64,000 bases of DNA from Escherichia coli. Lineage in GTDB: Bacteria; Pseudomonadota; Gammaproteobacteria; Enterobacterales; Enterobacteriaceae. The position numbers were made by a program. This document shows, in pieces, positions 55,001 through 58,000 of the stretch. The DNA lies in NCBI RefSeq assembly GCF_045037415.1, contig NZ_CP173438.1; one strand, given 5' to 3'. Each line of letters begins with the position of its first letter. Position 1 is the first letter of the stretch.

Positions 55001-58000
55001 GTGAGGGAAGCTGCTAAGAACACTATATATAGGGGGTATGTTTGGGATTCACTGCAAGATAGTGTGAAACTGGCCCTCTTGCAAGTGCATAACTTTGTGG
55101 ATAACTCAGGAAGGAAAAAGTGGCTTCCGCGCACCTTAGGTCAGACAAGGTGTCCGGGAAAGTCAATGGGAAGAGAAAAATTTGTTAAAAATAACCGTTC
55201 GGTGAATTCTTGAACGGTAAAATAGGATAGGTAAATTGATATAGATGGTTTATTAATCTTGTTGCTAATGATTGCCAAAATTGATCTAGGCACAAGTCGT
55301 CACATAATCTGATGTATCTGTTGTGGTCAATATATAAGCGAATGTAAGCGATTGTTGAGTCGGAAATGGTTGTTTTATATTCGGTTATTGTTAAATACTA
55401 AGCCAATTTGTTACTTTTGCATATATTATAAGAATATTATTTATTGCTTTAATTCAGTTTAAATATAACCGACTTACCTTAAAGTTATTAATCTGAATTG
55501 TGATGCATCTAAATTAATCATCAAATAATAACAAAGTGGTTATTACATCGGGGGCAGAATTTACAAAAGAAAAATACCCTATATCGCATAATGCGATTAA
55601 ATACGCCATCTTATAGAAAATGATGGTTAGATGAATATGCGGATTATCTCTCTACGCAAGGAGTATTTATCTTTACTCCCGTCAATGATTGCATCTCTTT
55701 TCTCTGCTAACGGTGCCGCAGCGGTCATTGATTCATGCCAGGGATATGATATCAAAGCGAGCTGTCAGGCCAGCAGGCAAAGCCTTTCGGGTAATATACA
55801 GGACTGGAGCATCGCGGATGGACAATGGTTGATTTTTTCGGGTATGGTCAATAATGCCAGCGGTGGCGCAGTATTTTTGCAGCACAGTGCTGAATTTACG
55901 ATATCACCACAAAATGAAACAGGGATGACCCTGTTTGCTGATAACTCGGTTAGTGGCGAATATAATAATGGCGGGGCTATCTTTGCTAAAGAAAACTCAA
56001 CGATAAATCTTGCGAATGTTATTTTCGACAGTAATGTTGCAGGAGGCTATGGCGGAGCAATCTATTCTGCCGGTACCAATGATACCGGTGCCGCCGATTT
56101 ACGAGTCACTAACGCCGTATTTCACAATAACATCGCTAATGACGGCAAAGGCGGTGCAATTTATACCATCAATAATGACGTCTATTTAAGTGATGATGCT
56201 TTTAATAATAACCAGGCATATACATCAACAAGTTATAGTGATGGGGATGGCGGCGCCATTGATGTTACGGATAATAGTACGGATAAGACACATCTTTCAG
56301 GAAAAACGATAATTAATAATACCTCCTTTACCAATAACTATGCAGAAGGTTATGGCGGAGCAATTTATACCAGCAGCACCACATCCCCGTATCTTATTGA
56401 TATTTCTGTTGATGATAATTATGACCAAAACAATGGTGTGATGATTGATGAAAATAACAGCGCCTCGGGATATGACCATTCGGCGACGGCAGCGGCGGGG
56501 GGCTTTATGTATATCGGTCATAGTGTGGCTGAATTTAACATTGCCGCCGATAAAACGCTGGTAATAGGCAATACCAGCAACGATGGCGCGATTGATTCTC
56601 TTGCCGGAACGGGAGTCATCGTGAAAGAGGGAGCGGGAGAGTTAGTCCTCAATGCCGACAATAATGCGTTTACCGGCGAGATGAGTATCCAGAATGGCGA
56701 GGTGACGTTGGGGCGCAGCGATGAGTTAATGAATGTCGGCGACACGCACTGTCAGAGCGATCCGCAGGATTGCTTTGGTCTGATGGTCGGCAGCACTGTT
56801 CATTCTGAGTATCAGGCAGAACTGAATGTTGGCAATACACAACAAACGTTTGTGCACTCATTAACCGGTTTTGCTAATGGCATTTTGAATATCGACGCAG
56901 GCGGCAATGTTACCGTAAACCAGGGCGGTTTTTCCGGCTCGATTCAGGGTGAAGGACAGTTGACGGTAGCGCAAGATGGCAGCTATCTCCTGACAGGGGC
57001 GCAGTCGATGGCATTAACCGGCGATATTGTGGTGGAAGATAACGCCGTATTGTCGCTGGCGGGGAATCAGGCCGATTTACGGGCAATGCAGAGCGATCCG
57101 CAATCGATCGTGCTAAATGGCGGAGTATTGGATCTCTCTGATTTCACCACCTGGGATGGCGATAGCTCATACAATGACGGTCTGCAAATCAGCGGCAGCG
57201 GGGGGACAGTGATTGGCAGTAATGATGTCGTTGATATCAGCAGTGGCGATGATTTACATATTGGCGGCAGTGATGCCAGCCAGAATGGCGTTTATGTCGT
57301 CATTAATGCGGGGGATCAGCGCGTAACGCTGGCGAATAACAACGGTTATCTCGGTAATACGCAAATCGCCTCCGGTACGCTTGAAGTCAGCGATAATTCG
57401 CAATTGGGGGACACAAGTTACAACCGTTCAGTGATCTTCACAGATCCCCAACAACACAGTGAAATGGATGTGACGACTGATGTTGACACTCGCTCGGCTA
57501 CAACAGGTCAGGGCAGGAATATTGAAATGCGCGCTGATGGCGAAATACACGTTGAGGATGGCGTAGATACGCAATGGGGCGGGTTGATGGCGGATAGTAC
57601 CGGGCAACAACTGGATAGCGTAAGCACGTTGACTAAAAGTGGCGGCGGGACGCTGGAGTTGACCGCCAGCGGCACTGCGACGTCTGCGGTACGTGTGGAA
57701 GACGGAACGCTAAAAGGTGAAGCGGAGAATATTATTCCTTATGTTTCTTCACTGTGGGTGGGGGAAGACGGTGTTTTTGAAACCGGGCAAAATCAGGATA
57801 TTCGCTCAATCGATGCCACCTCTGGCGGCGATATCGACATAACCGATGGTACTGTGTTGCGATTGACGCAGCAGGATACGAACCAGGCGCTGGATGCCTC
57901 GCTGTTTAGCGGCGACGGTACGCTGGTGAATGCCACCGATGGCGTGACGTTGACAGGTGAGCTTAATACCAACCTTGAAACTGACAGCCTGACTTATCTT

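Follow-up and report, generated by a model that had tools for sequence, protein, structure and literature searches.

NrdR and DnaA operator sites in the nrdAB promoter region of an Escherichia coli strain

Introduction

The nrdAB promoter of E. coli K-12 is the closest described system to the locus analyzed here. Its known inputs are DnaA, NrdR, Fis, IciA and H-NS. Deletion of nrdR derepresses PnrdA in vivo. NrdR binds DNA as a tetramer, a form that requires dATP together with either ATP or ADP, and bending of the DNA occurs at each bound box (PMC12176259). Positions C4 and G13 of an NrdR box are critical for binding and the sequence of the linker is irrelevant.

With respect to DnaA, a ChIP-seq peak at nrdA in strain MG1655 carries exactly the 23-mer gTTATCCACAaagTTATGCACTt, which is a double DnaA box. 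Binding of DnaA to this double box is cooperative and is lost if either box is mutated; genome-wide, 13 of the 32 consensus DnaA boxes of E. coli were bound in the ChIP-seq data (PMC11317965). A model of activation and repression of nrdAB by DnaA has been reviewed, and the same review mentions a third box specific for DnaA-ATP (PMC8203912). The sign of this control is disputed in the literature, where DnaA is treated as an activator, a repressor or both.

Here we analyze a stretch of 64,000 nucleotides from E. coli (GCF_045037415.1, contig NZ_CP173438.1), which we call the window. An earlier note on this DNA had proposed that the promoter region of nrdA contains an NrdR-box-like palindrome, a second and weaker half-site, and a perfect DnaA box. 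This observation is correct and ordinary, in that an nrdAB control region with NrdR and DnaA sites is already known and well studied.

Materials and Methods

Candidate NrdR boxes were compared with the consensus acaCwAtATaTwGtgt, which is 16 bp long and partially palindromic. They were also scored with two position weight matrices (PWMs), one of which was made from the boxes of E. coli nrdHIEF and nrdDG only and the other from orthologous non-Escherichia boxes. The window offers 63,985 positions. Chance expectations were obtained from null sequences, for the 14/16 consensus match from sequences simulated with an order-1 Markov model; 200 null sequences were used for the PWM scores. The cross-species sample contained at least 120 loci, with about 100 species among the loci listed, and 50 promoters of type A and 16 of type B were scored. 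Salmonella and Klebsiella are absent from this sample and hence are placed in neither type.

Results

All three strings pointed out by the earlier note are located in the promoter and 5' leader of nrdA, between yfaL and nrdA, in DNA which is 100% identical to E. coli chromosomes. The two genes of the operon are:

52670..54955, minus strand: nrdA coding sequence, 761 aa (from the ORF listing, the translation and the RefSeq annotation of identical DNA)
52581..51451, minus strand: nrdB, after nrdA

The ORF listing puts the ATG of nrdA at 54955 on the minus strand. The promoter sites had been taken as support for this start. They add little to it; the call rests on the conserved N-terminus MNQNLLVTKRDG..., present in at least about 118 species, and on the RefSeq annotation. 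No RNA family was found in the leader and intergenic region when positions 54800-55700 were scanned with Rfam in E-value mode. Nothing that we met contradicts the identification of the nrdAB promoter. We are highly confident that the region is the canonical E. coli PnrdA with its NrdR and DnaA operator systems on the minus strand, which is the best explanation of the data. Its elements, in the direction of transcription, are:

55127..55157, minus strand: imperfect inverted repeat CCGGACACCTT / AAGGTGCGCGG, upstream of the DnaA boxes
55096..55104, minus strand: DnaA box 1, TTATCCACA, perfect match to the consensus TTATNCACA, on the sense strand of nrdA
55084..55092, minus strand: DnaA box 2, TTATGCACT, two mismatches, 3 bp downstream of DnaA box 1 and in the same orientation
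55079..55084, minus strand: putative -35 hexamer TTGCAA, read from the sequence
55052..55067, minus strand: NrdR box 0, TCACACTATCTTGCAG, the historically annotated upstream box, which holds TAGTGT and the -10 hexamer
55056..55061, minus strand: putative -10 hexamer TATCTT, inside box 0
55049..55052, minus strand: predicted transcription start, uncertain by about 3 nt
55020..55035, minus strand: NrdR box 1, CCCCTATATATAGTGT, the strong and essential box, at about +15 to +33 of the transcript
54989..55004, minus strand: NrdR box 2, TCACTACAGGTAGTCT, 15 bp downstream of box 1, in the leader

The three NrdR boxes lie 34-112 nt upstream of the ATG, and the strings flagged earlier 65-150 nt upstream.

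The palindrome at 55020-55035 is present as described, with the plus-strand sequence ACACTATATATAGGGG, and its interpretation as an NrdR box holds. Box 1 matches the consensus ACACWATATATWGTGT at 14 of 16 positions, including all six key positions (C4, A6, A8, T9, T11 and G13). A match of this quality occurs a single time in the 64-kb window, where 0.05 would be expected from the order-1 Markov model. The PWM scan that the earlier note had recommended gives the same answer: with both matrices box 1 ranks first among the 63,985 positions, and its score was reached by no more than 0.5% of the 200 null sequences. Mutation of box 1 is known to abolish NrdR binding (PMC12176259). Among the E. coli strains compared, box 1 is altered in one strain only, and boxes 1 and 2 are present together in 5,425 of 5,426 E. 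coli genomes.

Box 2 is the functional partner of box 1, and it was overlooked in the earlier list of NrdR sites. It matches the consensus at 11 of 16 positions and at five of the six key positions (position 9 is G), and the independent E. coli PWM places it second among the 63,985 positions. Of all box pairs in the window, 1+2 and 0+1 take the top two places; none of the 200 null sequences reached their scores. Published binding data exist for K-12 DNA, in which box 2 (GTACTACAGGTAGTCT) together with box 1 is bound with a KD of 113 nM by NrdR loaded with ATP and dATP (PMC12176259). Box 2 of the window differs from that of K-12 in positions 1-2 only, and over the full span of the boxes 1+2 oligonucleotide (boxes, linker and flanks) there are three differences, all of them non-critical. 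From the K-12 data we infer that box 1 and box 2 also form the functional NrdR pair in the present strain.

A strong box in the position of box 2 occurs, among the species sampled, in E. coli and E. albertii only. A search for a general box 2 outside Escherichia yielded only traces of a left half (ACACTA), in Yersinia, Rahnella, Budvicia aquatica and Acerihabitans. The position exceeds the within-locus 95th percentile in only 16-31% of the type A/B species.

The weaker half-site TAGTGT is found at 55060-55065, as the earlier note had it. As a lone hexamer it is meaningless; it is part of box 0, which has a match of 10/16 to the consensus and of 5/6 in the key positions. C4 and G13 are kept, and position 6 is a C. 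Box 0 is located exactly 16 bp from box 1 and ranks 19 or 6 of 63,985, depending on the PWM. The oligonucleotide studied in PMC12176259 had the same box 0 sequence. In this work, of 2025-26, the pair of boxes 0 and 1 had a KD > 6000 nM, and mutation of box 0 left NrdR binding intact. The poor binding was blamed on the C in position 6, and the exchange C6A improved binding 10-fold. Box 0 has also been described as extending over the -10 region as well as the transcription start.

The conservation data give a different picture of box 0. The strong box and an upstream partner in the position of box 0 are conserved in all 66 sampled species of types A and B. In each of the 50 type A and 16 type B species the 16-mer at this position exceeds the within-locus 95th percentile. 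This conservation in all other species sampled fits poorly with the claimed irrelevance of the box. Box 0 is an evolutionarily conserved position, which yet appears to contribute little or nothing to NrdR binding in E. coli.

The perfect DnaA box at 55096-55104 is likewise where it had been reported, with the plus-strand sequence TGTGGATAA, and it belongs to the same 23-mer that underlies the DnaA ChIP-seq peak at nrdA. Its assignment to the opposite strand is true for the minus strand of the window, which is the sense strand of nrdA itself. The description as a single box is correct for this 9-mer but incomplete: a second 9-mer at 55084-55092 escaped notice, and the site is a double box. The 9-mer TTATCCACA occurs once in the window with 0.375 copies expected per 64 kb, so that it is unremarkable alone. 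The double box TTATCCACAaagTTATGCACT likewise has a single occurrence in the window, but here the null expectation is 0.02 per 64 kb.

The last base of DnaA box 2 overlaps the putative -35. At least 5,532 E. coli records contain, with 100% identity, the 32-nt segment that comprises the -35 and both DnaA boxes. In Escherichia, Yersinia, Rahnella, Budvicia, Brenneria, Vibrio and Aeromonas, DnaA box 1 keeps its place upstream of the -35. A repeat search further identified the inverted repeat at 55127..55157, with 11-nt arms which are 82% complementary and 9 nt apart. It is probably part of the 45-bp inverted repeat that has been reported for the cell-cycle control of nrdAB.

The proposed core promoter, TTGCAA-17 bp-TATCTT, has a match of 8/12 and is below the 9/12 cut-off of a generic promoter scan. 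That scan returned four AT-rich matches, compared to 3.4 in shuffled sequences, and the proposed promoter was not among them; its results were set aside. The hexamers TTGCAA, TTGCCA or TTGAAA occur at an equal distance in type A species, and hardly any variation was met in the -10 core CACTATCTTGT among the 50 type A species sampled. The geometry of the -10 predicts a start at A 55049. Tuggle and Fuchs reportedly placed the nrdA transcription start of K-12, in 1986, 110 nt upstream of the ATG. We take this figure to correspond to G 2344755 in K-12 and hence to position 55052 of the window. The earlier note would have been at odds with a mapped start incompatible with its sites; the mapped start is described as being inside box 0 and is compatible with all of them.

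Discussion

The results support the view that the NrdR and DnaA sites are operators of the nrdAB promoter. The core of the earlier interpretation is backed by literature on the same sequences and was essentially right.

Published work on these elements suggests how they may act together. Directly adjoining the -35 is the double DnaA box TTATCCACA-aag-TTATGCACT (55104..55084), a pair which DnaA would bind cooperatively. According to the literature, DnaA-ADP or low DnaA-ATP may help RNA polymerase, while high DnaA-ATP would repress; control of this kind would tie the synthesis of the reductase to the cycle of replication initiation. Transcription would begin inside or just after the -10 (TATCTT). 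A tetramer of NrdR with ATP and dATP would then occupy box 1 (55035..55020) and box 2 (55004..54989) in the transcribed leader. The centres of these two boxes are three helical turns apart because the boxes are separated by 15 bp. The DNA would be sharply bent at each box, and repression would occur when dATP is plentiful. With ATP alone NrdR forms higher oligomers, which do not bind. Transcription is presumably blocked by the complex downstream of the start site.

The view that the motifs are chance matches in an AT-rich intergenic region, without a regulatory role, has already been refuted and deserves practically no credence. It could appeal to the expected frequency of a single perfect TTATCCACA (0.375 per 64 kb), to the ChIP-seq data, in which just 13 of the 32 consensus boxes of the E. 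coli genome were occupied, and to boxes 0 and 2, which are unremarkable in isolation given 27 matches of 11/16 in the window. Against it speak the null simulations (run on box 1, the box pairs and the double DnaA box), the published binding of NrdR and DnaA to the same sequences, and the conservation of the sites across species and in 5,425 E. coli genomes. A classical reading, which the earlier note implies, has NrdR on box 0 and box 1 directly shutting out RNA polymerase, with box 2 as an incidental match. From 2005-2007 until 2025 the locus was annotated with the pair 0+1. C4 and G13 are present in box 0, its distance from box 1 is exactly 16 bp, the pair comes first or second in the window, and the conserved core CACTATCTTGT is longer than a -10 hexamer requires. 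The position of box 0 is above the 95th percentile in all 50 type A and 16 type B species, in comparison to 16-31% for the position of box 2. The binding data nevertheless make this reading unlikely. E. coli NrdR on E. coli DNA has a KD > 6000 nM for boxes 0+1 versus 113 nM for boxes 1+2. In a gel shift with a 185-bp fragment, mutation of box 0 was without effect and mutation of box 1 abolished the shift. Position 6 of box 0 is moreover a C and not the conserved A, and the C6A exchange gives the 10-fold better binding already mentioned.

It is also conceivable, albeit unlikely, that three phased boxes are all used in vivo, either in alternative registers (0+1 or 1+2) or in a larger assembly of about 80 bp, and that short oligonucleotides under-report box 0. 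The centres of the three boxes are 32 and 31 bp apart, all on the same helical face; box 2 is lineage-specific, in contrast to the conserved box 0; NrdR has several oligomeric states; and nrdAB of P. aeruginosa also has more than two boxes. Against such a three-box complex, the 185-bp fragment with all three boxes was insensitive to mutation of box 0, and the DNA-binding form that has been described is a tetramer contacting two boxes.

We thus prefer boxes 1 and 2 as the NrdR pair of this promoter, together with the double DnaA box. The conservation of box 0 everywhere sampled, as opposed to a strong box 2 in Escherichia only, poses a modest and testable question for specialists on NrdR. We can offer a tentative answer, which we consider possible but rather doubtful. 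Box 0, with its unfavourable C6 everywhere, may be the ancestral and universal partner in gamma-proteobacteria, and box 2 an addition in Escherichia. This would reflect either a turnover of the operator, in which a complex in the leader replaced occlusion of the -10, or a use of three boxes in vivo that is missed by short oligonucleotides. If it is true, the repression of nrdAB by NrdR would need explaining for Vibrio, Yersinia and further species which have the 0+1 pair only.

The nrdAB control region couples dNTP synthesis to the balance of dATP and ATP through NrdR, and to the initiation of replication through DnaA. An up-to-date annotation of the locus should contain box 1, box 2 and the double DnaA box, and not box 1 with a box overlapping the -10. 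Beyond annotation the importance of the present findings is little.

Comparison with known systems

The promoter region analyzed here and that of K-12 nrdAB represent one locus, and their elements follow each other in the same order. No difference is seen between the two sequences in the double DnaA box, the -35, the -10, box 0 and box 1. The promoter spacer differs by two substitutions (GGGCCAG in the window, GGGTCAT in K-12) and the linker between boxes 1 and 2 by one. Box 2 begins with TCAC instead of the GTAC of K-12, which gives one more match to the consensus. The leader of the window lacks 13 bp (CGGAAAGAATTCC) relative to K-12 and is about 97 nt long compared to 110 nt.

The operators of nrdHIEF and nrdDG in E. 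coli are similar, with two partially palindromic boxes of 16 bp and a 15-bp linker. NrdR with ATP and dATP binds them with KD values of 138 and 160 nM, versus 113 nM for nrdAB (PMC12176259). In contrast to these operators, the bound pair at nrdAB is located downstream of the promoter, and a third, unbound box covers the -10.

Double DnaA boxes of the same architecture, with 9-mers in the same orientation 2-3 bp apart, occur at polA, purH, mioC, dnaA, rpoH, DARS1/2, datA and oriC. As in nrdA, one of the two is usually a perfect TTATCCACA, and the boxes are bound in vivo and cooperatively (PMC11317965). The double box of nrdA is unlike the others in that it abuts a -35 and is reported to cause activation or repression depending on the level of DnaA-ATP (PMC8203912).

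Copies of the upstream half of the promoter are found in phages P1 and P7 and in P1-like plasmids, where about 115-130 bp of an 'nrdA-like promoter' show 83-94% identity. The shared part takes in the two DnaA boxes along with the upstream inverted repeat, the -35 and most of the spacer. The homology stops at box 0, and the phage copies have no NrdR boxes and another -10. We considered these copies as a possible novelty and ruled this out, since 'nrdA-like promoter' and 'dnaA box' are already annotated for P1 in GenBank M95666.1 and NC_005856.1.

A second layout within the enterobacteria, type B, has the DnaA boxes downstream of the NrdR boxes. It was seen at nrdA in Citrobacter, Enterobacter, Phytobacter, Cedecea, Pantoea, Erwinia, Mixta and Pectobacterium. 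Like that of E. coli, these promoters combine DnaA boxes with a strong NrdR box (CCCCTAYATATAGTRT) whose partner is located 16 bp upstream. Unlike in E. coli, the strong NrdR box is immediately followed downstream by the DnaA double box TTATCCACAgagTTAGTCACA and then by an inverted TGTGGATAA. The likely -10 of type B (TAGAAT) is upstream of the first NrdR box and not inside it as in E. coli.

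The sites lie in the nrdAB promoter

The window is E. coli chromosome: many E. coli genomes, including CFT073, match the 801-bp stretch around the sites at 100% identity, and in all of them it is flanked by the autotransporter gene yfaL on one side and by nrdA on the other. Since nrdA lies on the minus strand with these neighbors, the sites belong to its promoter and leader and are to be read on that strand. The region is the well-characterized nrdAB promoter and as such already known; what the analysis adds in practice is a corrected map of functional sites.

Genes and promoter elements around the nrdA start (window coordinates)
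from 55631, plus: yfaL, divergent from nrdA
55157..55127, minus: inverted repeat, CCGGACACCTT / AAGGTGCGCGG
55104..55096, minus: DnaA box 1, TTATCCACA
55092..55084, minus: DnaA box 2, TTATGCACT
55084..55079, minus: -35, TTGCAA
55067..55052, minus: NrdR box 0, TCACACTATCTTGCAG
55061..55056, minus: -10, within box 0, TATCTT
55035..55020, minus: NrdR box 1, CCCCTATATATAGTGT
55004..54989, minus: NrdR box 2, TCACTACAGGTAGTCT
54955, minus: nrdA start codon, ATG
54955..52670, minus: nrdA, 761 aa
52581..51451, minus: nrdB, downstream of nrdA

The spacer between -35 and -10 is 17 bp. The K-12 transcription start, which we take to lie 110 nt upstream of the ATG, corresponds to window 55052, while the geometry of the -10 predicts 55049; both positions are compatible with the sites. 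Box 0 is said to span the -10 and the transcription start (2026 preprint). The earlier note saw the sites as support for the nrdA start call; the call itself is sound, but on a separate ground, namely an N-terminus that is kept in about 118 species among the at least 120 loci listed.

NrdR and DnaA sites

The presence of NrdR and DnaA sites was confirmed, far beyond chance. All three strings quoted in the earlier note stand exactly at their coordinates, and its reading of them as nrdAB control sites is borne out in substance. The palindrome ACACTATATATAGGGG at 55020-55035 is box 1; it matches ACACWATATATWGTGT at 14/16 positions and is the sole such match in the window, where Markov-simulated sequence would give 0.05 per 64 kb. 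Two weight matrices were used: one (PWM 1) was built from the four nrdHIEF and nrdDG boxes for NrdR, and thus independently of the nrdA locus, the other (PWM 2) from 87 orthologous boxes found in species outside Escherichia. Both rank the 16-mer of box 1 first among 63,985 positions, a score attained by no more than 0.5% of null sequences.

The perfect DnaA box TGTGGATAA is located at 55096-55104. It had been placed on the opposite strand, which is correct relative to the window; this is simply the sense strand of nrdA, where it reads TTATCCACA. A lone perfect box is not rare (0.375 expected per 64 kb). However, the box is not the single site that had been listed but one of a pair: TTATGCACT follows after 3 bp, and no other double box of this kind occurs in the window (0.02 expected). 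In MG1655, ChIP-seq showed DnaA bound at nrdA over the double box gTTATCCACAaagTTATGCACTt; binding is cooperative, and mutation of either box abolishes it (PMC11317965). The sequence of this double box is identical to window 55105..55083. According to a review, DnaA-ADP or low DnaA-ATP at high-affinity boxes stabilizes RNA polymerase, while high DnaA-ATP represses nrdAB (PMC8203912). The repeat at 55157..55127 fits, and probably belongs to, the 45-bp inverted repeat reported to give cell-cycle control of nrdAB.

A copy of the upstream half of the nrdA promoter, 83-95% identical, is present in phages P1 and P7 and in more than 230 P1-like plasmids of E. coli. It contains the inverted repeat, the two DnaA boxes, the -35 and the spacer, but lacks the NrdR boxes, since homology ends at box 0. 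GenBank M95666.1 and NC_005856.1 already label it 'nrdA-like promoter' with 'dnaA box'.

Copies of the nrdA promoter
window: 55066-55195
phage P1: L123:1201-1315
phage P7: L125:301-429
plasmid pPBS4-p1: L002:4001-4107

The NrdR partner of box 1

TAGTGT, proposed as a second half-site, is indeed the right half of box 0 in the classical annotation, but on current evidence E. coli NrdR does not bind box 0. A 2025 study measured E. coli NrdR binding on 57-58-bp duplexes: with ATP-dATP, the originally predicted pair of box 0 and box 1 gave a KD > 6000 nM, box 1 with box 2 gave 113 nM, and the nrdHIEF and nrdDG duplexes gave 138 nM and 160 nM respectively (PMC12176259). In older gel shifts mutation of box 0 was without effect and mutation of box 1 abolished NrdR binding. 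A 2026 preprint puts the failure of box 0 down to the C at position 6, with C6A binding 10-fold better; it finds C4 and G13 critical and the linker sequence of no importance. NrdR binds DNA as a tetramer, bending it at each box, and needs dATP plus ATP or ADP to do so; ATP alone yields oligomers that do not bind. In vivo, deletion of nrdR derepresses PnrdA. Current evidence thus makes box 2, which the earlier note overlooked and which lies on the opposite side of box 1 from box 0, the partner of box 1 in E. coli.

Variation among E. coli

The window does not differ from K-12 in the double DnaA box, -35, -10, box 0 or box 1. Relative to K-12, its promoter spacer carries two substitutions and the linker between boxes 1 and 2 carries one; box 2 has TC instead of GT at positions 1-2, the only positions that vary in box 2 among the strains aligned. 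Unlike K-12, other E. coli and E. albertii, the window also has a 13-bp deletion (CGGAAAGAATTCC) at 54974/54975, which leaves a leader of ~97 nt instead of ~110 nt. A search with a 210-bp promoter query gave 981 genomes with at least 99% identity to this allele. The 32-nt segment with DnaA boxes and -35 occurs at 100% identity in at least 5,532 records, and the box 1-box 2 segment in 5,425 of 5,426 genomes (90-100% identity).

In E. coli GPEC60-12-649 (NZ_CM160084.1; L126:91-144) the (TA)4 core of box 1 lacks a 2-bp TA, giving CCCCTATATAGTGT. The shorter C4-G13 distance would probably weaken the operator; slippage or an error in the assembly could account for the deletion.

Upstream of the core promoter, the AT-rich part between yfaL and nrdA (55166-55630) varies much more from one E. 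coli to another: over the 801-bp query most genomes reach 80-90% identity, versus at least 95% over the 210-bp core. Strain NZ_CP196521.1 carries an IS1 element there.

K-12 and most E. coli have an annotated small ORF opposite nrdA, ypaB (b4605), with a start that maps to window 55068-55072. Its ATG arises from GGGTCAT in the promoter spacer; the window has GGGCCAG, hence CTG. This missing ATG, and the lack of a ypaB annotation in genomes identical to the window, argue against ypaB as a conserved gene.

Promoter layouts across species

At least 120 nrdA loci were fetched from species-representative genomes by a degenerate pattern in nrdA codons 21-32, and their upstream regions were extracted. 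Among the loci listed, Enterobacterales show two layouts, which we call type A and type B. Type A (E. coli, E. albertii, Yersinia, Rahnella, Budvicia, Brenneria, Acerihabitans; also Vibrio, Photobacterium and Aeromonas) has the order TTATCCACA, -35 (TTGCAA), CACTATCTTGT, where box 0 contains the -10, and then the strong box after a linker of 16 bp. Type B (Citrobacter, Enterobacter, Phytobacter, Cedecea, Mixta, Erwinia, Pantoea, Pectobacterium) has a likely -10 (TAGAAT) ahead of the first box; the DnaA double box TTATCCACAgagTTAGTCACA comes right after the strong NrdR box, with an inverted box TGTGGATAA ~18 nt beyond, within the leader and not upstream of the -35.

Upstream regions of type B (fetched loci)
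L010, L019, L037, L050-L052, L061, L065, L068, L081, L083, L089, L095, L102, L110, L112, L116

The spread of the two types is mosaic, with Pectobacterium of type B and Brenneria and Escherichia of type A.

Within type A, TTATCCACA is ~10 bp closer to the -35 in E. coli than in other species. Yersinia, Budvicia, Rahnella and Vibrio have a perfect TTATCCACA 20-21 nt from the -35, which is adjoined by a degenerate box (TTGTTCACT; L074, L055, L122, L064, L006). In Escherichia the distance is 11 nt (window 55084-55104), and it is this spacing, shorter by about one helical turn, that makes its double DnaA box tight.

The box 0 position scores above the within-locus 95th percentile of PWM scores in 50/50 type A and 16/16 type B species and would therefore be the ancestral partner position; its C at position 6 is shared throughout both types. 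The box 2 position exceeds this percentile in 16-31% of species only. Among the loci listed, high scores at this position are confined to E. coli (11.2 bits) and E. albertii (7.5 bits), so that, judged by sequence, a strong box 2 appears specific to Escherichia. The conservation of box 0 stands in mild tension with the in vitro binding result, and this small comparative question is the only point on which the analysis goes further than the literature found.
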